A stretch of DNA of 64,000 nucleotides from Candidatus Dormiibacterota bacterium. GTDB lineage: Bacteria; Chloroflexota; Dormibacteria; Aeolococcales; Aeolococcaceae. Location of the stretch: NCBI GenBank assembly GCA_963708605.1, contig CAVPTG010000015.1, positions 51,218-115,217 on the forward strand, in the 5' to 3' direction. Shown piece by piece: positions 7,559 to 43,543 of the stretch (positions are counted from its first letter, which is position 1; every line of letters begins with the position of its first letter). Both the position numbers and the translations under genes were made by a program. Under the pieces are notes generated by a model. The model searched no databases. It was given only the letters and a program-made list of their open reading frames with translations, and was not told the DNA's origin.

Positions 7559-9305
7559 CTAAGCGGCCTCGATCTGCGTCGTCACGCGCGTCGTGGCCGC
7601 GGGCCGAGCCGGGCTCCCGCCCCGCAGCCACGACGCCGTCGCCCCGACCAGCATCATGACCACCGAGAACGCGAAGGTGATGTGCATCCCGACGATGAAC
7701 GGGTTGCTGATCAGGTTCGGGAAGAAGGTTTGGCCCGACAGGTAGGCGGCCTGCGGAGCCGAAAGGGTGTGCAGTGACGGACCGAGCAACGTGGTCATCG
7801 GGTTGTATCCGAGGAACGCCGCAAATAACGAGCCGACCGGCGGCAGGTTCGCCACCTGGTGCGCCACGGTGGTCGACACGCCGTGCGCGGTCAACCCAGC
7901 GAACATCGTCGACGGCAGCGTGGAGCTGAGCCCCGCAATCATCAACGAGAAGAAGATGCCGATCGACAAAGTCATGCCGCTGTTCTGGAACGTGGCCAGC
8001 ATGCCCGAGGCGACGCCGCGGCGATCCGCCGGCACCGCATTCATGACGCCCGCAGTATTCGGGGCGACGAACATGCCCATCGACAAACCCACGAGGAACA
8101 GGAGGGCCGCAAACGGTAGGTAGGCGAAGTTCGCGGGCAGCAGCATGAGCAGCCCGAAGCCGACGGCGGAGCAGATCATCCCCGCCGTCGCAAATCCGCG
8201 CGACCCGAGCCGGTCCGAGAGAAACCCTGAGGACGGACCGCCGATGAGGAACCCGGCGGTCAGCGGCAGCATGAAGATGGCCGCCCAGAACGGCGTCGAT
8301 TCGAAACTGTAGCCATGCAGTGGCAACCAGATCCCTTGCAGCCAGATGATCACCATGAACATCAGCCCGCCGCGCCCGATGGAACTGAGCAGCGCCGCGA
8401 CGGTGCCAAAGGTAAAGCCGCGGAGGCGGAACAGGCTCACCCGGAACATGGGCTCTGCGACCCGGATCTCGACGACCACGAAGACGATCAACAACGCGAT
8501 GCCGCCGATGATCGCCGTGAGCACGGACGGATTCGTCCAGCCCATCGACTGTCCACCGTAGGGCTGGATGCCGTACGTGATCCCGACGAGCAATGAGATC
8601 AACCCGACGGCGAACAGCACGTTGCCCCACCAGTCGAACTCGCGACCGCTTCACGATGCCGGTCTCACGCAACTTGAGATATGCCCACGCGGTGCCGAAC
8701 AACCCGACCGGTACCGACACAAGGAAAACGAGGTGCCAGTCCGTCGTGCTCAGCAGCCCACCGACGATGAGCCCGATGAACGAACCGGACACCGCTGCCA
8801 CGGCGTTGATGCCCAGCGCCATCCCGCGCTCGCGCTGCGGAAAGGCGTCGGTGAGGATGGCCGTCGAACACGCGAAGATCATTGCTCCCCCAACTCCCTG
8901 GATCAGGCGGAAGAGGATCAGCTCCAGCGCGGCGCTGGGACCGGTGGTGAACACCAGCGAGAGCAGGATCGAGCCCACGGTGAAGACGAGAAATCCCAGG
9001 TTGTACAAGCGGACCCGGCCGAACATGTCCCCGATACGTCCGAGGCTCACCACCAGGACGGCGGTGACGACCATGTAGCCCATGATCATCCAGAGCAGGT
9101 AGCTGACATTGCTCGGGACGAGCGGATTCAGCTTGATGCCGCGGAAGATCGCCGGCAGCGAGATGAGGACGATCGACGAGTTGACCGTCGCCATGAGCAT
9201 GCCGATGGTGGTGTTGGAGAGCGCGACCCATTTGTAATGGGGACCGACCTCGCCATGCTTGCGCGAGGTCTTGGGGGTGGGGGCGGTGACACCCGTCGTG
9301 GTCAC
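7559..9305 (-). pseudogene. MFS transporter, DHA2/EmrB-like (14-TMS type), interrupted by a 1-nt frameshift near 8639 as sequenced
   Basis: The N-terminal half is in the frame of ORF 7527..9434 ([22 protein letters not shown]...[11 protein letters not shown]). The C-terminal half is in ORF 7559..8620 and extends upstream to [17 protein letters not shown].... The join needs one base skipped at CGA-G-TTC-GAC. The GTG start at 9305 overlaps the TGA of the upstream DsbA-like gene (GTGA). Confidence 0.85.
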
Positions 9306-9976
9306 GCCGCCGACTGTGCCTGCTTTTCCCGTTCCTGCTGCTCGCGTTCGCGTCGCCAGACGCGGATGCTCTCCAGGTCGAGCGGCAGCCGCTCTCGCTT
9401 GAGCTCGGCGACGTTCGGGTTGCGTGCCATCCACGTGAAGTGCCGCCAGAGATCAACCGCGGCCTCGTCGCCCGGGATGTCGCTGATGATGGGGCCGAAC
9501 ATGTGCGGTCCTTCGCCGCCGTCAAGGATGATCGTCGGAACACCGAAGGCCTTGTGTGCCGACACGGCCTCGTCGTGCTCGCGCTGCACGTCATCCCACG
9601 TCGACGGGTCGGCAAGCGCCCGCTCGAGCAACTCGGGCTCCAGACTCGCCTCGCGGAGCGATGCCTCGATCACGGCATGGTCCTCGAGCGGGAGTCCACG
9701 CTGATGGCGGGCGTCGCTCAGCGCCTTGTAGAACGCGCCGACGGCAGTGTTGCCGTGCGCGTTGCGCACCGCGATGGCGGTGCGGAGCGACGGCGCGGAC
9801 CCGGTGTCCGCGGCCGCGCGCCCCTCATCGCCACTGTTGACGATGGCGAGCGAGAAGACGCGCCACTCCACGTCGACCACGCCGAGTTCATCGAGACGTC
9901 GCGCCCAGCGAGACGTCTGATAGCACCATGGGCACAGCGGGTCGAAATAGAAACGAATCTTCTCAGCCATCGTCAT
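9302..9976 (-). CDS. DsbA-family thioredoxin-fold oxidoreductase, Rv2466c-like (mycothiol-dependent reductase type)
   Basis: [14 protein letters not shown] active site (CPWC). The central helical insert and the C-terminal GVPTIILDG...FGPIISDIP resemble the mycobacterial Rv2466c family. Confidence 0.85.
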
Positions 9977-9995
9977 GCAACCTCTTGCTCAGATG

Positions 9996-10571
9996 TTACG
10001 CGGTCGCGCCCGCTGCAGCCTCTGCTGTCGCCAACTCCTCAACCGCAGCCTTGTCCTGCGTGAGCTCGCCGTCGATCTCGAGTTTGACCTTCTCGCTGAC
10101 CAGCAGGCCACCACCACCAAGTGGAACGTTCCAGTTGAGGCCCCAGTCGGCGCGGGTCAGGGTCCCGGTCAGCGTACCGCCGACCTTCGTGTTGCCGAAC
10201 GGATCAACGACCATGCCGCTGTGCTCGTAATCGAGCGCAAGCTCGTGGGTGATGTCCTTGATCGTCAGGTCACCGATGACCTTGTAATGGTCGCCGGCGG
10301 GCTCGATCGACTTCAGCGTGAACACGATTTGCGGGTACTTCTCGACGTCGAGGAAGTCGGGGCCCTTGAGGTGGTTGTCGCGCATCTCGTTGTTGGTCGT
10401 GATGCTCGCGGCCTGGATGGTCACGGTCCCGCTGCCGGTCGTCGGATCATTCGGATCGTCCAGCTCGAGGTTGGCCTCCACCTGCGTGAAGCTGCCACGA
10501 ACTGTTGCGACACCGAGGTGCTTCGCGCTGAAGGTGACTGAGGTGTGATGCGGATCAAGACTCCACGTCAT
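9996..10571 (-). CDS. YceI-family polyisoprenoid-binding protein
   Basis: Track ORF 9996..10643. The ATG at 10571 is preceded by AAGGAG. Matching segments are WSLDPHHTSVTFSAKHLGVATVRGSF...NEMRDNHLKGPDFLDVEKYPQIVF...GDLTIKDITHEL. Confidence 0.9.
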   Translation of the reverse strand: MTWSLDPHHTSVTFSAKHLGVATVRGSFTQVEANLELDDPNDPTTGSGTVTIQAASITTNNEMRDNHLKGPDFLDVEKYPQIVFTLKSIEPAGDHYKVIGDLTIKDITHELALDYEHSGMVVDPFGNTKVGGTLTGTLTRADWGLNWNVPLGGGGLLVSEKVKLEIDGELTQDKAAVEELATAEAAAGATA

Positions 10572-10745
10572 GGCGTCTACTCCTTGAATGCGATTGCCGG
10601 GAGTGCCCCGGGCGGCTCCGGAGCTCATGTCGTTCCGGTCCACACATCATAAGATAAAGTGCTATAGTTTGTCAAGTGGCCACGGACGATAACTTCACCC
10701 GGTCCCAGGCTACTATTCGGGTCGGGATGGAGGACCCCTTCAACA

Positions 10746-11105
10746 ATGGATGCTGAGCGCGATTACTGCCCTGTCCACGAGGCGATCCAGGTGCTGCAGG
10801 AGAAGTGGACGATGCACATCGTCCGCGCCCTCCTCGACGGACCCCTCGGCTTCAATGAGCTGGGGCGCACCGTCGGAGGCTGCAACCCGGCGACGCTCAA
10901 GGTGCGCCTCGATCACCTCGAGGACCTCGGCCTCCTTCGCCGGACCGTCCACTCGCAGATGCCGCCCCGCACGTCGTACGAGCTCGCTCCCGCGGGTGTC
11001 GACCTCCAGCGGGTGATCGATGCGATTGACGCCTGGGCGCGCGAACACCTCGATATCGTCGCCATCGCGGAGGTCGACGAGGAGTCAAGCGCCGCTGTCG
11101 GCTGA
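10746..11105 (+). CDS. HxlR-family winged-helix transcriptional regulator
   Basis: CPVHEAIQVLQEKWTMHIVRALLDGPLGFNELGRTV...LEDLGLLRRTV. It is divergent from the YceI operon across a lower-GC 174-bp spacer. Confidence 0.9.
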   Translation: MDAERDYCPVHEAIQVLQEKWTMHIVRALLDGPLGFNELGRTVGGCNPATLKVRLDHLEDLGLLRRTVHSQMPPRTSYELAPAGVDLQRVIDAIDAWAREHLDIVAIAEVDEESSAAVG

Positions 11106-12276
11106 GCGGGCGCGAAGCCACGGCCGTCGGGCGGCGCTTGCCGGTCTGGCCTTGCTCGCGACCGCCTGCGGATCGACGTCGCGGCCGTCGCCGAGCCCCA
11201 CGGCCTCGCCTCAGGTCACGCCGACCGCCGTCGTCACCGGCACGCCGTCGCCCACCGCGGACGCGTGCGTCGCTCCGTCGCACGAGCGCGCGCCGGCCGG
11301 CACGATCGGAGCCAACTTCGCGACCGCACTCGCCTTCGCACCCGACGGCCGTCTCTTCTGGACCGAACGCTCAGGCACCGTGAGGGTCTGGCAGAACGGC
11401 GCGTCGCGGGTGTTCGCCAGGGTCAGGACGGTGACGGCCCAGCCGGACGGGAGTTATAGCGAACGCGGGCTGCTCGGTCTCGCCGTCAGCCCGACCTTCG
11501 CCAGGGATCGCTTCGTCTACGCGTTTTATTCCGACACGAGCTACCGCACCCAGCACGTGATTCGGTGGTACGACTGCGACGGGACGGGGATACACGCAAC
11601 CATCATCGCCACCTTCCCGGCGGGAAGTGACTGCTGCCACAAGGGTGGACGGATCGCCTTCGGCCCGGACGGCAAGCTCTACGTGACCCTGGGCGACGAG
11701 CATGACGCGCCGAGTGCGCAGAGCATCAGCGACGTTCGGGGCAAGGTCCTTCGCTACAACCCTGACGGCACGATCCCGCCGGACAATCCGTTCGGAGCGA
11801 CCAACCCCGTCTGGGCATACGGCTTTCGCAACCCGTTCGGCATCGCGTTCTCATCCACCGGCCAGCTCGCGATCACGATGAACGGTCCCTCCGGCGATGC
11901 CGGGAGCCCCGGGACCGGCTATGACACGCTGTATCTGAACGTGACCCGCGGCGCTCACTATCAGTGGCCCGATTGCTACGGCTATGGTCACCCGCTCGCA
12001 GCGTCGACGTGCGGCGGCGGTGCGTTGCCCAGCTGGAGCAGCGAGGCGAGCACCTACGTGCCGACCGGCGCGACGTTCGTCGATGCGAGCGGACCATCCG
12101 GCTACGCCGGACACCTCGTGTTCTGCTCCTACGACAAGGGCATGGCGATCGTCACTGCGGGCAGTCCCTATACCAGCGTGCGTCTCGGTCCGTCGGGATG
12201 CCGTCTCGACGTGGTCGAAGGGCCGAACCACGCGCTGTACTACTCGGACACGAGCCACATCTACGAGTTGGCCTGA
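11020..12276 (+). CDS. PQQ-dependent sugar dehydrogenase (soluble glucose/sorbosone dehydrogenase family), probable lipoprotein
   Basis: GLLGLAVSPTF, HKGGRIAFGPDGKLYVTLGDE, GKVLRYNPDGTIPPDNPF, YGFRNPFGIAF. The signal is lipobox-like (LALLATAC). The start is uncertain: ATG 11020 overlaps hxlR by 86 nt, and the only nearer in-frame candidate is CTG 11095. Confidence 0.8.
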   Translation: MRLTPGRANTSISSPSRRSTRSQAPLSAERARSHGRRAALAGLALLATACGSTSRPSPSPTASPQVTPTAVVTGTPSPTADACVAPSHERAPAGTIGANFATALAFAPDGRLFWTERSGTVRVWQNGASRVFARVRTVTAQPDGSYSERGLLGLAVSPTFARDRFVYAFYSDTSYRTQHVIRWYDCDGTGIHATIIATFPAGSDCCHKGGRIAFGPDGKLYVTLGDEHDAPSAQSISDVRGKVLRYNPDGTIPPDNPFGATNPVWAYGFRNPFGIAFSSTGQLAITMNGPSGDAGSPGTGYDTLYLNVTRGAHYQWPDCYGYGHPLAASTCGGGALPSWSSEASTYVPTGATFVDASGPSGYAGHLVFCSYDKGMAIVTAGSPYTSVRLGPSGCRLDVVEGPNHALYYSDTSHIYELA

Positions 12277-12472
12277 GGCATCGACGCTCGCCGCATGCGG
12301 CGATTCATGAGGTCACAGTGTCATTCCGTGCAAATGCAACGATTGCGCCGTTAGACCCTATTGAGCGCGTAGTGCAAAAGTGAAGCCGCAGCGCACCTGA
12401 GTGGACGACTGTCACCAAGTCGAAAGGTTGTCGCTCTTAATCTCAAACGCGAACGAACCCAGGAGGTTTGCG

Positions 12473-12709
12473 ATGGATCAGGACAACTTCACAGACGATT
12501 CCCCGTCCGAAACCCAGTCGCACCGGCGCAGCTTCGGCGGCCTCGGTCGCGGTCCGGCCGCGCTGCTCCTCGCCGCGGGTTTGCTGATCGGCGGTGGTAT
12601 CGGCGGGTTCGTCGCCGCAAATGCCGGCACCACCATCTCAACCCTGGCGTCGGCCACACCGGGCACGTCGCATCCGTGCCCACACACCGGTGGTTCGACA
12701 GCGACCTGA
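12473..12709 (+). CDS. Small membrane-anchored hypothetical protein (78 aa)
   Basis: Internal ATG of track ORF 12401..12709, preceded by AGGAGG. It has one TM helix (AALLLAAGLLIGGGIGGFVAA) after a basic RR-containing N-region. Confidence 0.45.
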   Translation: MDQDNFTDDSPSETQSHRRSFGGLGRGPAALLLAAGLLIGGGIGGFVAANAGTTISTLASATPGTSHPCPHTGGSTAT

Positions 12710-12810
12710 GTCGCGTTGACGGCGGGTGACCGCCTCCTACAGCCTCCCTCCCAAGACGGCTCGCCCCCAAGGCGAGCCGTCGCTGTATCTGCCGCGACTA
12801 CGATCCCCCG

Positions 12811-14328
12811 GTGAGCTCGCGTCTGCTGCCCGCGGTTGTATTCACCGCCGGTGCGTCCTCACTCGCGACGGAGATCTGCGCGACCCGACTGCTCGCCCCC
12901 TACTTCGGTCAATCGACCGTGGTCTGGGCGAACGTCATCGGTCTCATCCTCATCTACCTGTCTATGGGGTACTGGCTCGGCGGGCGCGTCGCCGACAGGC
13001 ATCCGACGCAGCGCGTCCTCGGCCTGATCCTCGTCATCGCGTCGCTCTGTACGGCGGCGCTCCCCTTTGTCGCGCGGCCCTTTCTCAACCTTGCGTTGCA
13101 GGGCTTCGCCGCCGTGAGCGTCGGCACGGTGGTGGGGTCATTCCTCTCGACGCTGCTCCTCTTCTCGGTGCCGGTGACCCTGCTTGGCATGGCCTCGCCC
13201 TTCGCGTTACGCCTGGCGCTCACCGACATCGACCGGGCCGGCCGAACCAGCGGGCGCCTCTCCTCGCTCGCGACAGTTGGTGCCATCATCGGCACATTCG
13301 GGTCGGCGCTGGTGCTCATCCCCGGGGTCGGGACCCAACGCACGCTGCTCAGCGCGGCATTGTCGGTGGCCCTTGTCTCGATCCCGCTGCTGCTGCGCCC
13401 GGCCGTGATCGCGAGCGCGGTGATCATCGTGCTCCTCGTCCTTCCTCCCGGCCTGGTCAAGGAGGCACAGGGAACCCTCGCCGAGCGTGAGACGACCTAT
13501 CAGTTCGTCCAGGTGGTGAGCGAGCCGGGCGGAAAGACCGTCATGCGCTTCGATGACGGCATCGCGGATCAATCCGTCTACCGCGCCGATACCGCGCTGA
13601 CCGGGGGCGAATGGGACATGCCACTCGTGGTGCCGCCACTTCTTGCGGGAGGCATGCATCGCGTGCTGGTGATCGGCAATGCCGGCGGAACGACGGCGCG
13701 TGCGCTGGCCGCGGAATATCCGGGCATCGACATCGACGGGGTGGAGCTCGATCCGGTGGTGACCCAGCTCGCACGCCAGTACATGGGCCTCGACTCGGTT
13801 CCCAACCTGCACGTGGCTACCGCGGACGGTCGCCAATACCTCGAGACCACCTCCCGGCGCTACGACCTCATCATCGTCGACGCATATCGAACGGAGTACA
13901 TCCCCTTCTATCTGGCAACCCAGGAGTTCTTCGCACTGCTGCGTGCGCACCTCACTCCTGGTGGCGGCATCGCGCTCAACGTCGAACGCGTTCCCGGAAA
14001 CAACGCGCTGGTGCAGGCGGTCGCCGGCACGGTGGCCACCGTGTTTCCCCAGGTGTGGGTGTGGCCCGCGCTGCATTTCAACGAGCTGGTCGTCGGGCTG
14101 TCCAACCCGATCCCACCTTCGTCACTCGATCAGCGACTGACGGCAATGCCCGAGAACATCCAGGTGCTCCGTCCGCTCGCGGTCGCAACGGCGTACGTTG
14201 CGCCGCCATCGCGGGATCCGCTCACCGACGATCGCGCGCCCGTGGAATGGCTCACCGATCGGGCCATCCTCGCGTACATCGCCGGTGGCGGCGTCCTCAA
14301 CGAGCGCCTGCTTCCCACCGCGCCGTGA
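12811..14328 (+). CDS. Fused membrane domain / spermidine-synthase-like methyltransferase-fold protein
   Basis: About 200 aa of polytopic N-terminus, then a Rossmann motif VLVIGNAGGTTARAL...DGVELDP...DLIIVDAY, typical of spermidine synthase-like proteins. Confidence 0.85.
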   Translation: MSSRLLPAVVFTAGASSLATEICATRLLAPYFGQSTVVWANVIGLILIYLSMGYWLGGRVADRHPTQRVLGLILVIASLCTAALPFVARPFLNLALQGFAAVSVGTVVGSFLSTLLLFSVPVTLLGMASPFALRLALTDIDRAGRTSGRLSSLATVGAIIGTFGSALVLIPGVGTQRTLLSAALSVALVSIPLLLRPAVIASAVIIVLLVLPPGLVKEAQGTLAERETTYQFVQVVSEPGGKTVMRFDDGIADQSVYRADTALTGGEWDMPLVVPPLLAGGMHRVLVIGNAGGTTARALAAEYPGIDIDGVELDPVVTQLARQYMGLDSVPNLHVATADGRQYLETTSRRYDLIIVDAYRTEYIPFYLATQEFFALLRAHLTPGGGIALNVERVPGNNALVQAVAGTVATVFPQVWVWPALHFNELVVGLSNPIPPSSLDQRLTAMPENIQVLRPLAVATAYVAPPSRDPLTDDRAPVEWLTDRAILAYIAGGGVLNERLLPTAP

Positions 14329-14663
14329 GTGTCCGATATCCAATGCAGCGTGCCGATTGTTGCGCCTGCGCAATCCACAGCGCTCGGATGTTGCGTTCGT
14401 GCATCGCATTGAACCACTGCTTGCAACGTGACGACGTGTTTGATAGTCTTACGACGTTCGGTGCTTTTGCACTGATCGCCGGGGGAAAGGCCTTGAGGGA
14501 TGGGGGACTGCGAGCGCTCCTGGGTTCAGCGTGAATCCGGGAGCGCTTTGCGAAACCGCCGCGGTCGAGACGATCGGACGTCCCCGCGTACTAAGGTGCC
14601 GCTTCAAGGCACACGTCAACTTGATTTGCCGAACGACCTGCTGAGGTTAGGGGAGAACACGAC

Positions 14664-14870
14664 ATGCGACAAAACAGCGGACTCGCCATCGTGCTGGCGA
14701 TCATCGGCATCGCCTGCGCGGTGGTTGCCGTTATCTATCTCACGCTGAAGACCAACCTCTTCGCGTCGGGCCATCCGATCCGGCATACCGATCGGGCGAT
14801 CGTCCTCATCATCGTTGCGGTCGTTTGCTTCGTGGCCGCCTACTTCGCAAGGCCACGACGGGTCGCCTGA
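14664..14870 (+). CDS. Small two-TM membrane protein (68 aa), hypothetical
   Basis: GGGGAG RBS-like sequence 7 nt upstream. It has two hydrophobic helices (LAIVLAIIGIACAVVAVIYL; IVLIIVAVVCFVAAYF). Confidence 0.5.
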   Translation: MRQNSGLAIVLAIIGIACAVVAVIYLTLKTNLFASGHPIRHTDRAIVLIIVAVVCFVAAYFARPRRVA

Positions 14871-14894
14871 TCGCACCACGCGACGGGCGGTAGC

Positions 14895-15092
14895 TCAGGA
14901 CTTCGGCGGCCGCCCCTTGTGGTTTCGTTCGAATGCCGCAAGGTCGCGTGTCGAGACGAGCCAGTCCCGGCCCGCCTTGGCCCCGGTCAGATCGCCACGC
15001 TGGCACAGCCGGCGCAGCCATGATTGCTCGAGACCAGTTCGCTGCGATACCTCGCGGAGGGTCAGGTAGCGATGGTTCGGCGAGCCACGCAT
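14895..15092 (-). CDS. Excisionase-family helix-turn-helix DNA-binding protein (HTH_17/MerR-like)
   Basis: Track ORF 14895..15176, using the internal ATG at 15092. The sequence MRGSPNHRYLTLREVSQRTGLEQSWLRRLCQRGDLTGAKAGRDWLVSTRDLAAFE matches the Xis-type HTH pattern. Confidence 0.7.
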   Translation of the reverse strand: MRGSPNHRYLTLREVSQRTGLEQSWLRRLCQRGDLTGAKAGRDWLVSTRDLAAFERNHKGRPPKS

Positions 15093-15440
15093 GCCAACGA
15101 GGGTAGCGGAGAGGCACTCGTGACACCGTGAAGCGTCCGTCGCCACCGGGTAACGAGAAAGCACGCATGCGTGCACACGCTACCGTGTGGATCTGCTAGT
15201 CTCCGCGGCCTAGCGGCCAGGATCTCCCGCCGGACGCCCCCTATCCCTTGAGCCGCCCGACGCCAAGGCTCCCTAACGCGGCGAATCGGGCGGCTCAGTT
15301 GTGTCTGTGGACCCCCGGGTGCCACAACGCAGCGGCCGGGGCTCACAACCCCGGTAACGCTTTGCTACCCTCCCGGCACGCTGAGGGACTGACGCTGCCC
15401 CCACGTCGCGGGGCACAGTCCGAGAGGCCAGGGGTTACGG

Positions 15441-16880: not shown

Positions 16881-16900
16881 GGCCTCATGACGGGGTGCGA

Positions 16901-16935
16901 GCCGTTTCGCCGGACCGGTTGCCCGGCGAAACGGC
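16901..16935. terminator. Bidirectional terminator-like hairpin between convergent genes
   Basis: Perfect 13-bp stem GCCGTTTCGCCGG / CCGGCGAAACGGC with a 9-nt loop. Confidence 0.55.
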
Positions 16936-16950
16936 GGCGCTAACTCGGAG

Positions 16951-18394
16951 CTACTGGAACCAGCCCTCGACATCAACGACCGCGTTGATGTTGCCCAGAG
17001 AGTTGAAGATTTTGAAGTCACCAGCCGGCGCGCCCGTCGAGAGCACGACCGCTGTCAGGTTGGGAAGCACCTCGCCGGCAAGGACGTTCACATCCGAAAC
17101 ATTCGGCGCCGATGTGAGATCAGCTGGATATGCGCTGAGGAAGGTGAATGACGAGCCGGCCACGGCGGTGAGGTTCGCGACGATCGCCTTTGCGCCGGCC
17201 GCGATTCCATCGAACTCCGGCCGCAGCCACGGTGATCGTTCCTCTCTGGCCCAGCAGGTGTCCGGAACACTGCGTGGTGTTGCCTACTCGAGTGTCGCAA
17301 ATCCGCGTCGGCGAGGTGGCGACGTATTGGAGGCCCAGCGGTGTGGGGGGAGGACCCTGGCCACCAAACCAGCCGTTGGCGTCGATGGCAAAGTTGGCCT
17401 TGCCCGCAGCGTTGTATACGCAGATGTAGAGGGGCAGCGTGCTTGGCCCGAGATTCACGAAGACTCGATTGGCCTGCGCTGTTCCAGCGTTGACGTTGAT
17501 GTTCGAGAACGACGGGCCTGGTTTGGATCCCCCGTACTGGCCGCATCCCCCGGTCGCCGTGTCCGGGAAGACGCTCAGGAAGGTGTTCACAGTGCCGGCG
17601 ATGGCAGTGAGGTTGATGATCGCGTTCTCCTCGGTCCCATCATTGGGGATGAAGTCGTTCGGGGCGCAGGTGGAGGGGGTGCACCAGGCGGGTTGCCCGG
17701 CGATCAACACCTTCACCGTGGAGTTCGGACCGAGCGCGTGCGGCTTCCCGTCATTGAGGTTGTTACACGCATTTGGCTCCTGGCCCGCGCGCGTGTCGCA
17801 GACGCGAATCGGCGCGATAGGATGGTATTCCCCGGCAGGAAGGGTCGCGGACGCAGGGGTGAAGTAGCCCTCGACGTCAGCGAGCACATTCACTGTGCCC
17901 AGTGCGTTGTAGATGGCGACCGCCCCTCCGGAGCTCAGTTGGACGGTGACCGCATTGGCCACGGCGGTGTGCGCCTGGAAGTTGAGATTGGAGGCCTGCG
18001 GCGGCTGGGAGAGGCTGGCAGGGTAAACGGTCAGCAGGCTGTACGACGTGCCGCCGACCGCGGTCACATTGAGAACGACGGCGGTGGCGCCGAGCGGGAC
18101 GGTATTCCCTGTGCCAGGGTCGACGTACCCGGTGACCTGGAGGTTGAGCTTTCCCTTCGGTCCGAGAGCGGCACAGTGGTTGGCACCACAGAAGTCCTTT
18201 CTCGTGTCCAGGATCCTGAACGTTGGTGAAATCGGCCGGTAGCTGCTCGCTGCCGAGGCTGTCGCGGTTTTGGGCGGAGCCCCAGCAGTCGCCTTCGCCG
18301 CAGCTGCGACCGGGACCTGCTGGGCACCGAAAATTGCCATCGTCGCCAGAATGCTGACCGCGGCGGTGACGCCGCTTCCCCTCTTGAAACTCAT
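16951..18394 (-). pseudogene. Secreted protein made of three ~130-aa 'DTR' repeats, interrupted by a 1-nt frameshift near 17215 as sequenced
   Basis: Signal peptide MSFKRGSGVTAAVSILATMAIFGAQQ from the ATG at 18394. Each repeat starts Y-x-P-x-x-P-x-R-[IV]-[LC]-DTR and ends D-[VA]-x-G-[YW]-F. The third repeat continues from ORF 17120..18550 (..TITVAAAG) into ORF 16951..17163 and its upstream extension (FDGIAAGAKAIVANLTAVAGSSFTF...VDVEGWFQ). Confidence 0.7.
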
Positions 18395-18520
18395 AGCGGC
18401 TGATACTACACGGCCGGGACACAGCGCGTCAATTGCAGCAAACACCCAGAACGGGCACCCGGTATCCGAACCAGGCACCTCGGACGACGCCGCCCCTGCC
18501 CGTCGAGCATAATTGAAGGT

Positions 18521-20554: not shown

Positions 20555-20593
20555 CTGATCCCCACGGGGAGCGGGCGACGCTGGTGCGAATGC

Positions 20594-23500
20594 TCATCCG
20601 AGCTTGAGATCGATAACGCTGGTCGCGCCAGTGAGCCCGGCGTTGAAGGTGTACTGGACAGTGGTGCTGGGGCTCGGGGCGGCTTCCCCGATCACCTTGC
20701 TGGTCGAGAAGATGAGCCCAATGTAGAAGGGGCCGCTGCCTGAACTGACTTTGACAGTAACCGCGTCGCTGGTCGTCGACTGAGTGATGCCGCCGCTGAC
20801 CTTTGTGCAGCTGCTTGCCGTCGCGTTGTCATACACGCCGCTACCGCTGCTCAGGAGGAGTTTCTTACTGGTCTCATTGGTCGACTGCGTGATCTTGTAA
20901 GTCCCGGTCGACGGGACCTTCACCCAGTATGTGAACGACGATGGGGTGACGGTAGCGACCTTGCTGCCGCCGAGCGTGTACTGATAGGACGGCAGGCTGG
21001 TCGCAAATCCCGAAGCGAACTGCGCGCAGGTCGCGGTGATCGGGGTGATCTCGCTGATCTGGGGACCAACAGTCACCGGATCCGCCCCGCACTTGCTCGT
21101 GACAGCCACGTTGTTCGCATCGCCACTGAAAGCCGCAGTCCACTGATAGGTGCCGACCGTCTTAACGGTGAACCCCATGGTGGTAGTGAAGGGTCCGTTC
21201 GTCTTCACCGCAGTCACGGTCTCGGTATGAATCGCAGAGGCGCAGCTGCCGTCGCCTGGGGCATACAGCCTGAAGGTGATCGAGGCGGTTCCAAGCAGAT
21301 TGCTGGTCCCCGACAGCGTGGCGCGATCCTGCAGGGTGGTGCCTGTGCCCGCAGATTTGGGGTTCGCCGTCGTTGAGATGGTCGGCTGTGCGGTGATCAC
21401 CACGGGCTCGCCGCACGTGCTGGCCACCGAGTTGTTGTTGCCGTCGCCGTTGTAGATGGCCTTCCAGTAGTACGTCCCCGCGGCCTTCGGCGTCCATGCG
21501 ACGGTGTAGCTCGCTGATGCACTCGCGACGGTGCCGCTTCCGCTCACGCCGGTCACCGCCGTCGTGCAGGTGCTATTCGAGTACAACGTAAATGTCACAG
21601 TTCCGGTGGGCGCTATCGGCGCCCCTGACACTGTCGCCGTGTCTTTCAAGGTCTTGATCGCCTTGCCGACCGTTCCCGTGGTCGGGCTCGCGACGGTGCT
21701 GATCGTCGGCGTCGCCTTGCCGATGACGATCTGCTCAGGGACTCCACCGCACGTGCTGACCGTGCTGTTGTTGGCGTCGCCGTTGTACACGGCTCCCCAG
21801 TAGTAGGTACTCACCGCCGCCGGCGTCCAATTGGTGTTGAACGAGGTCGTTCCTGCGACAAGCGTCCCGTTTCCGCCGACGCCGCTGACCGCTGTCGTGC
21901 ACGCGGCATTCGTATACAACGTGAAGGTCACCGTTCCGGTCGGAGCTGCTCCACCGGATATGGTTGCGCTGTCCTTGACGGTGATCTGCACCCCTACTGT
22001 TCCCGATGTCGGGCTCGCCTGCGTGGCGATCGTCGGGGACGCCTTGCCCACGGTCAGCGGCTCGCTGCTGCAGTTGCTCGTTGTGGTGTTGTTGTTGCCG
22101 TCCCCGGAGAACATCGCCTGCCAGTAGAAGGTGCCCACCGTCGGGAAGCTCAGTGTGTTCGAGTTCGGCACCGCCCCGGTGCTCTCATTCACCGGGAGGG
22201 TGCCCGCGCCTCGGGGGTTCTGCGTGCAGGTGTTGTTGCTGTACACCGTGTAGGTCACCGAAGACGAATTCCCTCCAGGGGCGAACCCGTTCAGCGTCGC
22301 GGTGTCGAAGTCCGTGCCCCCAGCCGCGATCGAGGTCGCATTCAACACCGTCGTGATCGTCGGCGATGCCTTGCCCACGGTCAGCGGCTCGCTGCTGCAG
22401 TTGCTCGTTGTGGTGTTGTTGTTGCCGTCCCCGGAGAACATCGCCTGCCAGTAGAAGGTGCCCACCGTCGGGAAGCTCAGTGTGTTCGAGTTCGGCACCG
22501 CCCCGGTGCTCTCATTCACCGGGAGGGTGCCCGCGCCTCGGGGGTTCTGCGTGCAGGTGTTGTTGCTGTACACCGTGTAGGTCACCGAAGACGAATTCCC
22601 TCCAGGGGCGAACCCGTTCAGCGTCGCGGTGTCGAAGTCCGTGCCCCCAGCCGCGATCGAGGTCGCATTCAACACCGTCGTGATCGTCGGCGACGCCTTG
22701 CCCACCAGCACCGGTTCATCGCCGCAGTTGGTGGTTGCGCCTGCATTGTTCGGATCCCCACTGAAGCTCGCCACCCATTCGTAGGTGCCCACGACCGTGG
22801 CCCCGTACCCGCCCGTGGTGCTGTAGGTCCCGTCACCCCCGATCCCGGTAACCGTCTCGGTATGGATCACGGCTCCGCAGTGCGCGTCCCCCGGGGCGTA
22901 CAGATTGAAAGTGATCGACCCGGAGCCGTCAGGATTGCTCGTGCCGCTCAGGGTCGCGCTGTCCTGCAGGGAGACCCCGACCGCTCCCGATCCCGGGTTC
23001 GCCGCCGTCGTGATCGTCGGCGACGCCTTGCCCACCAGCACCGGTTCATCGCCGCAGTTGGTGGTTGCGCCTGCATTGTTCGGATCCCCACTGAAGCTCG
23101 CCACCCATTCGTAGGTGCCCACGACCGTGGCCCCGTACCCGCCCGTGGTGCTGTAGGTCCCGTCACCCCCGATCCCGGTAACCGTCTCGGTATGGATCAC
23201 GGCTCCGCAGTGCGCGTCCCCCGGGGCGTACAGATTGAAAGTGATCGACCCGGAGCCGTCAGGATTGCTCGTGCCGCTCAGGGTCGCGCTGTCCTGCAGG
23301 GAGACCCCGACCGCTCCCGATCCCGGGTTCGCCGCCGTCGTGATCGTCGGCGACGCCTTGCCCACCAGCACCGGTTCATCGCCGCAGTTGGTGGTTGCGC
23401 CTGCATTGTTCGGATCCCCACTGAAGCTCGCCACCCATTCGTAGGTGCCCACGACCGTGGCCCCGTACCCGCCCGTGGTGCTGTAGGTCCCGTCACCCCC

Positions 23501-23845
23501 GATCCCGGTAACCGTCTCGGTATGGATCACGGCTCCGCAGTGCGCGTCCCCCGGGGCGTACAGATTGAAAGTGATCGACCCGGAGCCGTCAGGATTGCTC
23601 GTGCCGCTCAGGGTCGCGCTGTCCTGCAGGGAGACCCCGACCGCTCCCGATCCCGGGTTCGCCGCCGTCGTGATCTGCGTCGGATTCGACCCGGCCGCGA
23701 CCCCCGTCTGCGGCACCACCACATAGAAACCCATGGCGACGAGCCAACCCGACGCCACCGCCATCGCTCGCCGCGCACGCGAGACGCAACCTGGTCGCCT
23801 CTGATGACCCCTCAAGTTCCCCTGTCTCCCGCTCGCCCCGCTCAC
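20594..23845 (-). CDS. Large secreted Ig-like domain repeat protein (Big_3_5-like domains, about 9 copies) with a distinct C-terminal domain
   Basis: 1083 aa made of ~110-aa modules with the conserved pattern ATLSG...ITF.LY....C......T....G.Y........GTY.W.A.(Y/F)(S/N)GD.NN.....CG.EPV.V.KA.PTI.T. The start is uncertain (GTG 23845, or ATG 23764 before the hydrophobic AVASGWLVAMGFYVVV). Confidence 0.85.
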   Translation of the reverse strand: MSGASGRQGNLRGHQRRPGCVSRARRAMAVASGWLVAMGFYVVVPQTGVAAGSNPTQITTAANPGSGAVGVSLQDSATLSGTSNPDGSGSITFNLYAPGDAHCGAVIHTETVTGIGGDGTYSTTGGYGATVVGTYEWVASFSGDPNNAGATTNCGDEPVLVGKASPTITTAANPGSGAVGVSLQDSATLSGTSNPDGSGSITFNLYAPGDAHCGAVIHTETVTGIGGDGTYSTTGGYGATVVGTYEWVASFSGDPNNAGATTNCGDEPVLVGKASPTITTAANPGSGAVGVSLQDSATLSGTSNPDGSGSITFNLYAPGDAHCGAVIHTETVTGIGGDGTYSTTGGYGATVVGTYEWVASFSGDPNNAGATTNCGDEPVLVGKASPTITTVLNATSIAAGGTDFDTATLNGFAPGGNSSSVTYTVYSNNTCTQNPRGAGTLPVNESTGAVPNSNTLSFPTVGTFYWQAMFSGDGNNNTTTSNCSSEPLTVGKASPTITTVLNATSIAAGGTDFDTATLNGFAPGGNSSSVTYTVYSNNTCTQNPRGAGTLPVNESTGAVPNSNTLSFPTVGTFYWQAMFSGDGNNNTTTSNCSSEPLTVGKASPTIATQASPTSGTVGVQITVKDSATISGGAAPTGTVTFTLYTNAACTTAVSGVGGNGTLVAGTTSFNTNWTPAAVSTYYWGAVYNGDANNSTVSTCGGVPEQIVIGKATPTISTVASPTTGTVGKAIKTLKDTATVSGAPIAPTGTVTFTLYSNSTCTTAVTGVSGSGTVASASASYTVAWTPKAAGTYYWKAIYNGDGNNNSVASTCGEPVVITAQPTISTTANPKSAGTGTTLQDRATLSGTSNLLGTASITFRLYAPGDGSCASAIHTETVTAVKTNGPFTTTMGFTVKTVGTYQWTAAFSGDANNVAVTSKCGADPVTVGPQISEITPITATCAQFASGFATSLPSYQYTLGGSKVATVTPSSFTYWVKVPSTGTYKITQSTNETSKKLLLSSGSGVYDNATASSCTKVSGGITQSTTSDAVTVKVSSGSGPFYIGLIFSTSKVIGEAAPSPSTTVQYTFNAGLTGATSVIDLKLG
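22027..22680. repeat. Tandem direct repeat, 2 x 327 bp, near-perfect (coding; Ig-like module B)
   Basis: Line-by-line comparison found copies 22027-22353 and 22354-22680 identical except about 3 mismatches in the first ~15 bp (cgatcgtcggggacgcc vs tgatcgtcggcgatgcc). Confidence 0.9.
22681..23670. repeat. Tandem direct repeat, 3 x 330 bp, perfect (coding; Ig-like module A)
   Basis: Copies 22681-23010, 23011-23340 and 23341-23670 are identical base for base by eye. The sequence diverges 5 bp into what would be a fourth unit (23671 tgatctgcgt). Confidence 0.92.
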
Positions 23846-24086
23846 CGGGCGGCCCCACTAGCCCGACGGCAACTGGAGTGTGTCCGGCCAATCCCTTCTA
23901 GCCCCAAGCCTCGCCGATGCGAGGCGCCGCAAATAATGCGCCGCACGGCCATGGGATTGCCAGCGGCAGAATTGACGTCGCCAGCAGCCCCTTCCGGTGT
24001 CGACGTCCCCCGGAACGACGAAGCTCCCACCGCCGAGGGGATCCCTCGGCGGCAGGAGCTCAAGTGTCCTTAGATCGCTGTCGGTT

Positions 24087-25124
24087 CTAGCAGTGCAGCG
24101 TGGACGCATACCTCTGGTTGGTGACGACGATCCCGGTTGCGGCACCGTGGCGCGAGGCGTGGATCGTGCCTTCGCCGGAGTAGGTCATCACGTTCTCGAT
24201 GAGGATGTTGCTGGCCGGACCGGTCACGAACCAGGCCGGCTGGCACCGGTTGACTTCGTAGTAGGTCTCGTTGTCGAGGATCGTGTTGGTGTCATTGAAG
24301 AGCGCCAGGATGCCGCCATGAATGGTGATGTTGGTCAGACGCGCTCCGTTCTGGCAGTCGATGTCGACTGCCGCGAACCCGCCCGTGCCGTGGTTCACCA
24401 TGACCACGTTGGACACGACGCTGCCGGTGATCGGGAAGGCGTAGCACGGGTTCGAGCCAGTGAGCCGCATGCCGAAACCGGTTCCGGTCTCAGCGGTGAT
24501 GTTCATCACCGTGGTGTTGCTCGCGTCGCTGAACAGGACGGCGGGTACCGGGCTGCCCGGGATCGGGACTGTTCCCGGGTTGAACGTTCCGGTATTGAGG
24601 TTCAGGTTCTCGACCGTGTTGCCGGGCGAGGTGATCTGAAAGATATTGCTGGCGCCGTGCTGCACAAGGAACGTACGGGTTGCGCCGGCGCCGTCGATGG
24701 TGACCCCGAAGTGCCCGCTGACATGGATCCTGCCGGTGAGAACGCACACGCCCGCGGGGATCGTGACCACCCCGCCGGGTTGCTTGCCTGCAGCGTCAAC
24801 GGCCGCCTGAAGTGCGGCGGTGTTGTCCGTGATGCCGTTGCAGCTGCCTACAGACGTGGTCGTGGCGGTGTGCTTCACCAACCCCGCTGTGCGGCCCGTC
24901 TGGCCAACGGTGGATCCGGACGAGCCCTTGGATGTCCTCGACTTGCCGGTGGGCGCCGCCGCGAGTGGGACGCTGCGATGCACGCTGAGGTGGGAGATCG
25001 AAGAGGTCGCCGACAGCGCCGCAGGACGAACTGCGGCTGCGGTTGGTGTCATGCCGGCCTGTGCCGCCAGTGCAACGGTTCCAACAGTGGCGACGACGGC
25101 CAGACGAGCGAAGGGAACTTTCAT
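24087..25124 (-). CDS. Secreted right-handed beta-helix protein (pectate-lyase superfamily-like), second paralogue type
   Basis: Track ORF 24087..25163, using the ATG at 25124 (MKVPFARLAVVATVGTVALAAQAG signal). The motif ITDNTAALQAAVDAAGKQPGGVVTIPAGVCVL is followed by repeated N.T..N..-type turns (NTVENLNLN, NTTVMNITA, ARLTNITIHG). Confidence 0.7.
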   Translation of the reverse strand: MKVPFARLAVVATVGTVALAAQAGMTPTAAAVRPAALSATSSISHLSVHRSVPLAAAPTGKSRTSKGSSGSTVGQTGRTAGLVKHTATTTSVGSCNGITDNTAALQAAVDAAGKQPGGVVTIPAGVCVLTGRIHVSGHFGVTIDGAGATRTFLVQHGASNIFQITSPGNTVENLNLNTGTFNPGTVPIPGSPVPAVLFSDASNTTVMNITAETGTGFGMRLTGSNPCYAFPITGSVVSNVVMVNHGTGGFAAVDIDCQNGARLTNITIHGGILALFNDTNTILDNETYYEVNRCQPAWFVTGPASNILIENVMTYSGEGTIHASRHGAATGIVVTNQRYASTLHC

Positions 25125-25443
25125 ATCCCGACCGTGGCATCGGAAGGGAGTTCCCGATCTCACCTTCGGAAACCGGAATGTGACGGTTCAGCAACTCCCG
25201 AGCCGCCGATCACCACAACCCCGCCACAGGCATCGCGCCGACGTGGAGATTGAGGCCCATAGCGGGCGTTTGGACCCGGAGCCGTTGCATGCCTCGGTAA
25301 CGACGCCGTCTCGGGCCGATGGGAACCGGCTTGGTGAGAGCCGGTTCAGAATGACGCGATTGCGCCGATTAGCCCGTACCCCCCAATGCGGCCGTGTATG
25401 ATCAGGCGGACGAACGGGGCGGAATCGTAGGGAAGGTTATCGA

Positions 25444-27433
25444 GTGGTAAAGGTGCAGGTGGGCCGAGGCATGGGACGACGGCTACTCGGACTGGTGGGC
25501 GGGGCGTCGGTCGCCGTCGGATTGCTGGTGGCGCAGGGAGTCAATCCCCTGTCGCCTGTCAGGGCCTCGACTGTCGGGGCGGCGACCTCCAGGTCCGCTG
25601 CGCCACCCGCCCCAACCCAGACCGCCTGTCTCCAGTCGACCGGATCGTACTCACCGCCCGCCACGGCGCCGCACATCATGATGATCGTGGACGAGAACAC
25701 GTCGTACGGCGCCAGTGACGGCAGCCCGTATGTCATCGGGAATTCGAAAGCACCGTACATCAACAACACGCTGATCAAGAAGGACGGCTATACCTCTCTC
25801 CCGAGTTGGTACTCCGTCGAACACAACAGTCCACTCGACTACATGGACCTCATCTCCGGGTGCGACCACAACGGCCTCTCGAAGCCCTACACGGATCCAA
25901 CGCTGGTCAACGAGCTCGACACGGCCCACTTCACGTGGAAGGCCTATATGGACGGACTGGCGCCGGGCCAGACCTGCTACACGGGCACCGGAGCCGGGAC
26001 CAACCATTACTCGCAGACGCACAACCCGTTCATCTACTTCGGCCAGATCACCAGCAACACGGCTGAGTGCAACGCCAACGTGGTCCCTTACCAGCAGTCA
26101 CAGCTGTCGACCGATCTGAACAGCACTACGCCACCTGACTTCGTCTGGATCACGCCGAACGAGTGCAACGACATGCACAGCCTCTGTCCTCCGCTGAACA
26201 ACCACGTTGGCCAGGGAGATGCGTGGCTTGCGGCCAATCTGCCCACGGTGCTCAGCTCGGACTGGTACACGAAGGGCAACGGCATCGTGATCATCACCTT
26301 TGATGAGGGTGGGAGTGGCGATAACCAGCCGGGCCTTCCTGAAGGCACGGGTGGTCATATCGCGACGCTCGTCATCAGCCAGAACTCGTGCGGCTCTTTC
26401 ACCGGTACCGGCAACAACTTCGCCACGCTCCGCGGGATCGAGGAGGCGTACGGCGTCCCGCTGTTGAACAACTCGGGCAACGCGACATATGGCGATATCA
26501 CGCCTGCGTTTGCCGACGGCGCCTGCAAGGGGAGTGTTGGGACCGGCACCATCAGCGGAGTGGTCACCAACAGCCAGACCACCCTCCCGATCCAGGGCGC
26601 CACCGTCACGTGCACCTGCAACAACACCCCGACCGGCACCGATGGCAGCGGCAAGTACGCCTTCACGAACGTTGCCGTCGGCACCTACTCGGTCACGTTC
26701 TCGGACCCGGGGTTCGTCACCCAGACTGCGGACAACGTCGGCGTCACATCGGGAAATACCACAACGGTTAATGCGGCGTTGGTGCCGGCGAGTGGCTCAC
26801 CGCCCACCGTCGTCCAGGACGTCGGTGTGGCTGCCCAGACCACCACCACGTCATTTTCCGTGACCACGAGCTCGACTGCCACCGGCGACCTCCTCGCCAT
26901 CTCGACCGAGAGCGACGCCGGCAGTGGTAAGGCGTCAGCCACGGTGACCGGCGTCACCGACAATCAGGGTGACGTGTGGATGAAGGCGGTGGCGGCGAAT
27001 CCCTCGACACGTGACGGCGCGGAGATCTGGTACTCACCAGGCGCCAAGCCCGGGGTGACCACGGTGACGGTGACGTACTCGAGGTCGGTGAACCCGGTCG
27101 TCCGTTTCTATGAGATCGCCAACGCGAGCGCGCTGGATGCGACCTCAGCGGGGTCGGCGAAGAACACCACCCCGAATACCGGGATCACCGTGATGACCAC
27201 GACGGCGAACGAGATGGTCATCGGCGTGATCGGCTTCGCGCCCAACTCGGGGACCATCAGCGGGCTCACCACGGGCTTCACCAACGACCCGCTCGTGCTC
27301 AACAACCTCACCAATTTCAACAACGCCGAGCAATCCGGTCACGAGTTCGGTCTCCGCCACCGGCACCTTCTCGTATTCGGGGACGCTCTCGAGCTCGGCG
27401 TCCTGGGCCGCGGTCCTCGCAACCTTCAGCTAG
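25444..27433 (+). pseudogene. Secreted phosphoesterase-family protein (PLC/acid-phosphatase AcpA type) + CarboxypepD_reg-like domain + C-terminal beta domain; 1-nt frameshift about 27300-27365 as sequenced
   Basis: HIMMIVDENTSYG...DFVWITPNECNDMHS...VIITFDEGG..GGHIATLVIS is the phosphoesterase part. GTISGVVTNSQT..GATVTC...TDGSGKYAFTNVAVGTYSV is CarboxypepD_reg-like. The track ORF runs on to 27570 as Arg/Pro-rich nonsense overlapping the convergent gene by 110 nt. The +1 frame gives ..SVSATGTFSYSGTLSSSASWAAVLATFS-stop at 27431-27433. Confidence 0.75.
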
Positions 27434-41630: not shown

Positions 41631-41825
41631 CGCTTGCCAAGGCGCTGTCGCCGCGGTATGCTCGGCCTCCGAAGAGAGTGGAAGGGCGGCGAGGGGGATC
41701 AAGGGGGCGAATGACGTGGCGCAGCACCTACCAGTGACGTCAACATCCGTGCCAGTCTCAAGTGCGTTGCTGATCAACGCATTCGGGTGTTTTGGTCATG
41801 ACTGAGGAACCGCGACTTCCGTCCG

Positions 41826-43432: not shown

Positions 43433-43543
43433 GTATTTGCCTCCAGTGCCTTTCCGCCACGCCATGAAACTTTCGGGGCGTATGGAGCGTGATCATATGC
43501 TAGGCGGACCCGAGAACTCAACAACGATCTCACGAGGAGACGA

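Follow-up and report, generated by a model that had tools for sequence, protein, structure and literature searches.

One-base frame disruptions in a soil metagenome-assembled genome are very probably consensus errors at GAGTC/GACTC sites

In a metagenome-assembled genome (MAG), well over a hundred GAGTC sites were found to be spelled GAGTTC, which breaks the reading frames of the genes concerned. These frame disruptions are very probably errors of the MAG consensus at GAGTC/GACTC, likely made during long-read base-calling, with a genus-specific DNA modification as the likely trigger. The evidence comes from a window of 64,000 nucleotides (the whole stretch of DNA that was analysed), from the remainder of the genome to which it belongs (G000; 19 contigs, 80% estimated completeness), from contigs of independent metagenome runs, and from related and unrelated genomes. 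Judging from its contiguity, completeness, and error spectrum, G000 most probably derives from long Nanopore reads that were not polished with short ones.

Results

Four genes in the window are restored by removal of one base

The gene of a DHA2-like MFS transporter (7559-~9250, minus strand) is divided into two frames by an extra base within the motif GAGTTCGA, which lies on the coding strand at 8634-8641. The spurious A is one of the two at 8637/8638 (plus strand), and its removal yields the true sequence of the site, GAGTCGA. Without 8637, the gene forms one open frame of 630 codons, and the Pfam MFS_1 match, at residues 3-265 of the repaired protein, spans the junction. The same motif GAGTTCGA is found at 17210-17217 on the coding strand of a secreted DTR-repeat protein (16951-18394, minus strand), which carries the repeat DTR...D-x-x-G-[YW]-F three times. 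The extra A/T at 17213/17214 throws the final copy out of frame; upon one-base removal, the gene has 534 codons and reads ...TITVAAAGVDGIAAGAKAIVANLTAVAG.... In the plus-strand gene of a phosphoesterase-family protein with a CarboxypepD_reg domain (25471-27433; PF04185, PF13620), the motif GAGTTCGG at 27343-27350 contains an extra T (27346/27347) that shifts the C-terminal ~30 residues. The repaired phosphoesterase has 676 codons and ends in ...AEQSGHESVSATGTFSYSGTLSSSASWAAVLATFS before the stop codon, with a continuous Pfam Phosphoesterase match.

A sequence-only reading of the window had proposed that these three genes, together with one termed sulfotransferase 2, each need one skipped base. 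This was right for the MFS, DTR-repeat, and phosphoesterase genes, each of which is off by +1 and is restored, as predicted, by deleting one base of the A/T doublet. The disruption of sulfotransferase 2, on the other hand, could not be reproduced: In tblastn with an intact paralogue, the four sulfotransferase paralogues (27509-28357 and 33971-34843 on the minus strand, 40707-41627 and 47963-48865 on the plus strand) each aligned with one another over ~300 residues in a single frame. We also confirmed that the window contains exactly two copies of GAGTTCGA, both on the minus strand, and that the ambiguity interval of the phosphoesterase holds the motif, as GAGTTCG at 27343-27349. The two GAGTTCGA sites had been called sharply localisable, but frames alone leave an ambiguity of 12-20 nt, and it is the orthologues and reads that fix the position of the extra base.

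The fourth site of the window, which was absent from that reading, is a GAACTC, i.e., the motif in reverse-complement orientation (41847-41852, plus strand; context ccccg[A]actcc), with the extra A at 41848/41849. The extra base puts the first ~17 codons of a histidine phosphatase (His_Phos_1, PF00300, E = 6e-46; 41798-42518, plus strand) out of frame, and after removal of 41848 the frame reads MTEEPRLPSGERVALPRLHGETQPCLLYLVRHG.... The open reading frame at 42596-43492 encodes an LPxTG-type surface protein.

Raw counts of GAGTTCGA and of GAGTTCG (n = 15 in the window, including 27343-27349) were in neither case above chance, and the signal lies in the association of the motif with frame breaks and not in its abundance. 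As had been pointed out, the GAGTTCG copies at 5120, 45713, and 58846 are read normally in frame, and the codon phase varies between the disrupted sites (xGA-GUU-CGA or GAG-UUC-G, with the fourth site being in reverse complement).

Contigs from an orthogonal platform lack the extra base

We compared the genome with contigs from independent soil metagenome runs (X1, X2, X3, X4, and X21), which matched it with 0-1 mismatches over 150-650 nt and lacked exactly one A/T at window positions 8637, 17213, 27346, and 41848. One base was missing at 8637 in contigs of X1 (4.54/4.54) and X4; at 17213 in a contig of X2 (260 nt, one mismatch; 3.4/3.4); at 27346 in contigs of X1 (2.9/2.9), X2 (3.19/3.19), and X4 (7.59/7.59); and at 41848 in contigs of X2, X3, and X21. 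Elsewhere in the genome, the extra base was absent from the run contigs at seven sites in C8:58-78 kb (four GAGTTC/GAACTC and three GAAGTC) and at five of five indel differences in C4:239-259 kb. All 16 sites checked (4 in the window and 12 elsewhere) therefore lacked the extra base, and GAGTC or GACTC was restored each time, at an Illumina contig depth that was low (2.5-10x). In three of the four strictly compared regions, the indel differences were unidirectional, with the MAG being the longer sequence.

The loose ends of X3 contigs were Nextera adapter (CTGTCTCTTATACACATCT, AGATGTGTATAAGAGACAG), and many contigs were exactly 151 nt long, which identifies the runs as Illumina and hence as an orthogonal platform; among the runs listed, no Nanopore run matched the window. 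The suspicion of systematic base-calling or assembly insertions was thereby borne out at every site examined. The expectation that the corrected sequence would contain GANTC proved right insofar as GAGTC/GACTC was restored at these sites, yet the error is limited to the GASTC half of GANTC.

GAGTTC/GAACTC leads all 6-mers in association with +1 breaks

The association between motif and broken frames extends to the entire genome. In a site-centric test of all 2,080 6-mers over the whole 3.0 Mb, using a codon-usage frame-break detector, GAGTTC/GAACTC ranked first, with 184 of its 1,922 sites flagged as +1 (9.6%, against a baseline of 2.0%; p = 6e-66). This corresponds to an excess of ~145 flagged sites genome-wide, and no enrichment of -1 breaks at GAGTTC/GAACTC was seen in the same scan. 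Relative to the coding strand, the motif was found 43 times in the same orientation and 49 times as the reverse complement, while most GAGTTC copies (1,114) are in frame as Glu-Phe. The flanks had an effect: a preceding C and a following G(A) were enriched, and GAGTTCG was flagged at 13.7%. GAAGTC was flagged at 3.5%, and GAAATC/GATTTC (1.3%) and GAATTC (2.3%) stayed at baseline, where it should be kept in mind that such rates reflect error and not methylation itself.

An independent ORF-segment detector gave a consistent result, with the motif lying within ~14 nt of 69 of the 172 strong +1 junctions (background 1.6%) as compared to 1 of 41 -1 junctions. About 70 strong +1 junctions carry neither GAGTTC/GAACTC nor GAAGTC/GACTTC, and a search of these did not find a secondary motif, with G/C runs, GATC, and TCGA not being enriched. 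The classical homopolymer form of error is also present in G000: G/C runs of at least 5 are overrepresented at its -1 breaks (17% vs 3%), a typical long-read deletion signature. Two further detectors were set aside, as a position-wise one with 30-codon arms and separate thresholds overlooked known sites, and a looser event-level one produced thousands of flags and was too noisy for absolute counts. Our results accordingly rest on the ORF-segment detector and the site-centric 6-mer test.

The effect is confined to few-contig assemblies of one genus

Among the genomes compared, the effect was confined to few-contig assemblies of the genus. It recurred in two further few-contig MAGs, G006 (9.2% vs 3.6%, p = 2e-5) and G018 (5.5% vs 1.3%, p = 3e-6), for which we infer a long-read platform from contiguity, completeness, and error spectrum. 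It was absent from G001 (1.7% vs 1.1%), a member of the same genus in 173 contigs that served as the one negative control (n = 1) from the fragmented, presumably short-read members, and from a single-contig genome of the same order (G037). Three Microflora Danica Nanopore MAGs from other phyla (G041, G043, and G044), with 180-432 GAGTTC sites each, showed no +1 excess either. Such a restriction to few-contig MAGs of this genus speaks for a DNA modification that is specific to the lineage, probably N6-methyladenine. Estimated completeness was 72-89% for few-contig members of the genus versus ~88-90% for fragmented ones, a reduction that is expected from frameshift errors.

The MFS site illustrates this pattern at the level of a single gene. 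Its orthologues read K-R-S-R-V-D-W-W, with Val encoded by GTC, GTT, or GTG and no extra base, and GAGTTCGAC, with the extra base, was seen only in G000, G010, and G019, all of them few-contig MAGs. These three are exactly the genomes whose Val codon, following CGA, creates GAGTC.

Two neighbouring genes for PF01555 beta-class amino-methyltransferases (G000 C12:106902-107729 and 109667-110638) are candidate writers of such a modification. They are conserved 2.2 kb apart in 25 of 25 genomes of the genus, and one of the two proteins carries a DPPF motif. Their best PDB relatives are M.RsrI (5.5e-27) and CcrM (3e-16).

Discussion

Our data suggest a route to the disrupted frames. At ~5-10% of true GAGTC/GACTC sites, the A of GA (or its T partner on the other strand) would be doubled, giving GAACTC (= GAGTTC) and less often GAAGTC (= GACTTC), and each such doubling would add one base and produce an apparent +1 shift in any gene that it hits. 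The trigger may be a genus-specific modification that affects both strands of GAGTC, N6-methyladenine being the simplest candidate, and the two neighbouring beta-class amino-methyltransferases, core genes of the genus, are its putative writers. A modified A would distort the pore signal such that base-caller and polisher emit AA for one A. Lineage-specific modification motifs are known to cause systematic Nanopore errors, although the published modification-mediated errors are mainly substitutions and not insertions (PMC10687267), and native DNA was found to yield more insertions than amplified DNA (bioRxiv 10.64898/2026.01.14.699587). MFD-LR MAGs were assembled from Nanopore reads only, using Flye followed by a single Medaka round (PMC12313526). 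The penetrance of ~5-10%, taken together with the unaffected GAATC/GATTC, indicates that the modification is either specific to GASTC or that context is as important as modification. A GANTC-wide pattern of the CcrM/HinfI type is not supported at the level of the errors, as the four GANTC sequences do not behave alike in error rate.

The sites would be artefacts all the same if base-caller, assembler, or polisher mis-sized the A/T in GAGTC purely from its context, with no modification being involved. Such an explanation draws on the finding that just ~5-10% of GAGTC sites are hit, on the indirect nature of the case for methylation, on the influence of the flanks (C before, G(A) after; 13.7% for GAGTTCG), and on the unaffected GAWTC sites. 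However, a context-only error should show up in any genome that was sequenced alike, and its absence from three unrelated Nanopore MAGs and from the same-order single-contig genome counts against it, so that we consider it unlikely. Far less probable still is that the insertions are real, with GAGTC acting as a mutational hotspot (e.g., by slippage at, or repair of, a modified site) that has left more than 100 genuine frameshifted pseudogenes, an alternative that the sequence-only reading had also put forward and that our data do not support. Three species-level genomes share the extra base at the orthologous MFS site, which inheritance or recurrent mutation could explain, but these are exactly the genomes whose Val codon creates GAGTC. 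Moreover, at 16 of 16 sites the base is missing from Illumina contigs that otherwise match, the indels are one-directional (MAG longer) in three of four regions, and the fragmented G001 is free of the effect. Genuine pseudogenes or genome decay were rejected in the same vein, since the +1 lesions run in one direction, cluster on a single motif, and do not occur in other runs.

Programmed +1 ribosomal frameshifting or four-base decoding of GAGUUC, with the genes being expressed as written, deserves virtually no credence. All four window genes do need exactly +1, and two of the sites have an octamer in common. Yet the coding-strand motif is GAACUC in 49 cases versus GAGUUC in 43, the codon phase is not fixed between sites, the 1,114 in-frame Glu-Phe copies make up most of GAGTTC, and the population DNA is devoid of the extra base. 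Occurrence in either orientation and the varying codon phase exclude a ribosomal mechanism, and the DNA evidence refutes it. The occurrence of the motif on either strand and the Illumina-derived contigs without the extra base bear out the DNA-level cause for which the sequence-only reading had argued.

With consensus error as the preferred explanation, the MFS transporter, the DTR-repeat protein, the phosphoesterase, and the histidine phosphatase are intact genes, and their frameshifts are biologically meaningless. G000 and no fewer than two further few-contig MAGs of the genus would contain some 150-400 spurious one-base insertions. These divide genes, give rise to false fusions and pseudogenes, and depress the completeness estimates to 72-89%, as compared to ~90% for fragmented relatives. 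A rule-based correction is possible, in which GAGTTC/GAACTC and GAAGTC/GACTTC sites that coincide with a +1 break are checked against short reads or orthologues, and the motif should be masked whenever such MAGs are scanned for recoding, pseudogenes, or novel gene fusions. The error pattern also offers an indirect read-out of the putative genus-wide modification motif. A broader picture, which in our judgement could equally well prove right or wrong, is that of an uncultured soil actinomycete-like genus with a conserved and undescribed GASTC adenine modification, two adjacent core beta-class writers, and insertion-type Nanopore errors that silently frameshift hundreds of genes in public long-read MAGs, including species representatives.

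The phenomenon can be compared with several known systems. Like prfB-type programmed +1 frameshifting, it presents as a one-base skip in an otherwise intact gene, but it has no fixed codon phase, occurs with the motif on either strand, and involves a base that is absent from the population DNA. With homopolymer indel errors (Homopolish, PMC8011154; Wick et al. 2019, PMC6591954), it shares that the changes are single-base, split genes, and lower completeness. Unlike those errors, the true site contains no homopolymer, and it is only within GAGTC that one A/T is read as two. Closer are the Nanopore errors at GCAGC/GCTGG in Listeria described for Modpolish (PMC10687267), which likewise affect a short fixed motif in a lineage-specific rather than platform-specific manner, persist after read-based polishing, do not appear in Illumina data, and are correctable from homologues. 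Those cases are overwhelmingly mismatches, whereas here a one-base insertion doubles an A/T and breaks the frame, and the modification is here inferred and not measured. Finally, the corrected site falls within GANTC, at which CcrM of Alphaproteobacteria and M.HinfI methylate adenine (with narrowed variants GAWTC/GADTC, PMC8919816). The doubled base is the position that enzymes of the CcrM/M.HinfI type methylate on each strand, and the genome encodes beta-class PF01555 enzymes that are related to CcrM and M.RsrI. However, the host lies outside the Alphaproteobacteria, the errors affect GAGTC/GACTC but not GAATC/GATTC, and there are two separate candidate enzymes, as for an asymmetric site.

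Results

Single-base frame breaks in four genes of the window

The sequence-only reading had tied +1 frame breaks, each requiring one base to be skipped, to the octamer GAGTTCGA, which it found at two sites; an exact search of the window indeed returned only two copies (8634-8641 and 17210-17217, both on the minus strand), along with 15 copies of GAGTTCG, 27343-27349 among them. Neither raw count in the window was above chance, so any signal has to be sought in the features with which the motif co-occurs. Translation in all three frames revealed +1 changes in the MFS transporter (ten residues not shown / (R)EFDWWGN...), the DTR-repeat protein (...TITVAAAG / DGIAAGAKAIV...), and the phosphoesterase (...NAEQSGHE / SVSATGTFSYS...). 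Frames alone left an uncertainty of 12-20 nt for each break, and the sharp placement claimed for the first two was thus not borne out. An additional site, a GAACTC copy at 41848, separates the first 17 codons from the rest of a histidine phosphatase gene. Once these four bases were taken out, single open frames were obtained, as had been stated earlier for the first three genes, and the MFS and phosphoesterase products gave continuous Pfam matches. Two further GAGTTCG copies, at 22161-22167 and 22488-22494, read in frame within a 1,083-codon minus-strand ORF (20594-23845); their identical 22-nt contexts, 327 nt apart, indicate an internal tandem repeat of ~109 residues.

A break in sulfotransferase 2, the fourth gene originally listed, could not be confirmed: the window holds four Sulfotransfer_3-type paralogues (27509-28357, 33971-34843, 40707-41627, and 47963-48865; 32-52% identity), each aligning in a single frame over ~300 residues. 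This region also holds GT2 glycosyltransferases, the histidine phosphatase, and an inositol-monophosphatase-like gene, which points to a gene cluster devoted to a sulfated glycan or lipid of the envelope. The secreted protein encoded at 42596-43492 (minus strand) has no Pfam match and carries a Thr/Pro-rich linker, TPTPTPTATPTPLPTPTG; with an LPITG motif, a hydrophobic helix, and an Arg-rich tail in succession at its C terminus, it is probably a sortase-anchored surface protein.

The motif is associated with +1 breaks genome-wide

We extended the analysis to the whole genome (3.02 Mb in 19 contigs, 67% G+C, estimated completeness 80%; the window is C15:51218-115217), calling coding segments with a codon log-odds model trained on long ORFs and defining junctions as pairs of neighboring segments on one strand that differ in frame and have overlapping stop-to-stop ORFs. 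Among junctions with >100 nt to the next stop, which excludes ordinary gene ends, 151 were +1 and 22 were -1 (base missing); GAGTTC/GAACTC lay within 15 nt of 71 of the former versus 1 of the latter. In a site-centric test, which asked at every occurrence of every 6-mer whether the coding score improved after skipping one base, GAGTTC/GAACTC ranked first of 2,080 canonical 6-mers (184 of 1,922 sites flagged, 9.6% vs 2.0% baseline, p = 6e-66; an excess of ~145 sites), followed by its own sub-words or by stop-codon-containing words, i.e., gene-junction noise. Longer words were flagged more often (GAGTTCG 13.7%, AGTTCGA 14.3%), and the octamer is thus the most error-prone flank rather than a separate motif. 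A second, weaker motif was GAAGTC/GACTTC (3.5% flagged).

Programmed ribosomal frameshifting, against which the sequence-only reading had argued from variable codon phase, can be judged from these data. The phase did vary, and the 92 motif copies at +1 junctions were split between 43 GAGTTC and 49 GAACTC on the coding strand; a ribosomal signal could not also act as its reverse complement, which places the cause in the DNA sequence itself or in the way it was read. Two frameshifts inside CGACGAGTTCGA in the same genome are mended by deleting one A, although they are not independent evidence.

The extra base is absent from Illumina contigs and most orthologues

Alignment of the MFS region with nine same-genus genomes showed the protein K-R-S-R-V-D-W-W at the site, and in seven genomes the Val codon was GTC, GTT, or GTG with no extra base. 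CGAGTTCGAC was present in the window's own genome, G010, and G019, all few-contig assemblies (19, 20, and 3 contigs) and exactly those genomes where CGA + GTC would make GAGTC.

The metagenome runs sharing most window 31-mers were from soil, from one 2024 study (X1, X2, X3, and X21) and a 2017 one (X4), and their contigs aligned to the window over 150-650 nt with at most 1 mismatch. Nextera adapter sequence made up the loose ends of X3 contigs, and many contigs measured exactly 151 nt, which identifies the libraries as Illumina and hence as an orthogonal platform. One base was left out at 8637 (X1, X4), 17213 (X2), 27346 (X1, X2, X4), and 41848 (X2, X3, X21); depth at the sites was low, 2.5-10x, yet consistent across runs. 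Elsewhere, all 13 indel differences in C8:58-78 kb were one base left out in the run contigs, with 7 of the twelve listed falling in motifs (4 GAGTTC/GAACTC, 3 GAAGTC), and all 5 in C4:239-259 kb lay in GAACTC/GAGTTC. At motif sites the shorter form was GAGTC or GACTC in every case, in agreement with the earlier expectation of GANTC. On the 5'-GA strand, the A was doubled in both forms, frequently as GACTC to GAACTC and more rarely as GAGTC to GAAGTC, and GAATC and GATTC displayed no such effect in the site-centric test. With ~3,525 unaltered GAGTC/GACTC copies in the genome, only ~5-10% of true sites were affected, more often those preceded by C and followed by G(A).

Other errors were present as well. 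Some 70 strong +1 junctions carried neither motif, and several such insertions were likewise missing from Illumina contigs, so the assembly also has other, unsystematic insertions. Five of these, within ~1.6 kb at C8:73600-75300 (L217 15653, 16368, 16780, 17264, and 17276), were absent from X1 or X4 contigs, three matching predicted +1 breaks; this looks like locally poor consensus, not a motif effect. The -1 breaks were enriched at G/C runs of at least 5 (7 of 41 strong cases vs 3% background, whole genome), and at 53830 an X21 contig had one G more than the assembly, both of which are classical long-read homopolymer deletion. In the spacer after sulfotransferase 1, X2 contigs lacked one G of a G5 run at 41693 that X1 and X3 retained, which reflects polymorphism or else a miscalled homopolymer.

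The effect requires both the genus and long-read-type assembly

We applied the same +1 test to 400-kb samples of other genomes. In the same genus, GAGTTC was flagged at 9.2% versus 3.6% baseline in G006 (2 contigs, p = 2e-5) and 5.5% versus 1.3% in G018 (1 contig, p = 3e-6), ranking first or second among all 6-mers in both; G001 (173 contigs), the one fragmented member sampled, gave 1.7% against 1.1%, not significant. A single-contig genome of the same order, G037, gave 2.0% against 1.5%, and Microflora Danica Nanopore MAGs from other phyla (G041, G043, and G044) gave 1.6-2.2%, at or below baseline. By this comparison, the error arises only where an assembly of long-read type is combined with this genus, as is characteristic of base-calling disturbed by a DNA modification specific to a lineage.

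Discussion

The association of frame breaks with the motif is real and highly non-random, and its original interpretation as a DNA-level base-calling or assembly insertion proves correct: the breaks are artefacts of sequencing and assembly, and the genes concerned are intact. We infer a long-read, Nanopore platform for this genome; none of the runs listed was a Nanopore run holding the window. Few-contig genus members had lower estimated completeness than fragmented ones (only 72-80% for the 2-16-contig assemblies G006, G022, and G008, below those of 170-280 contigs), which, like the -1 breaks at G/C runs, fits a long-read origin; completeness of the clade's long-read MAGs is probably underestimated owing to frameshift errors.

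The sole biology in the feature is a hint of genus-wide GAGTC modification, which would disturb base-calling such that the A is doubled in the consensus. Candidate writers are two beta-class PF01555 (N6/N4 amino-methyltransferase) genes, 2.2 kb apart in 25 of 25 genus genomes (here C12:106902-107729 and 109667-110638). Being so conserved, among housekeeping neighbors (acyl-CoA dehydrogenase, MaoC dehydratase, and folP), the two genes resemble orphan methylases of the core genome, not a mobile restriction system. A DPPF catalytic motif is present in one of them, and the nearest solved relatives of the pair are M.RsrI and CcrM; a set of two enzymes would be well matched to an asymmetric site like GAGTC, which we regard as a lead.

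Nanopore artefacts of this class, in which modification disturbs base-calling, are already known (PMC10687267, PMC6591954), and insertions as well as substitutions have been reported to be more frequent with native than with amplified DNA (bioRxiv 10.64898/2026.01.14.699587). The MFD-LR catalogue was built from Nanopore reads only, with Flye and one Medaka round, its shallow Illumina metagenomes serving for binning only (PMC12313526), a design that fits the pattern of runs observed here.
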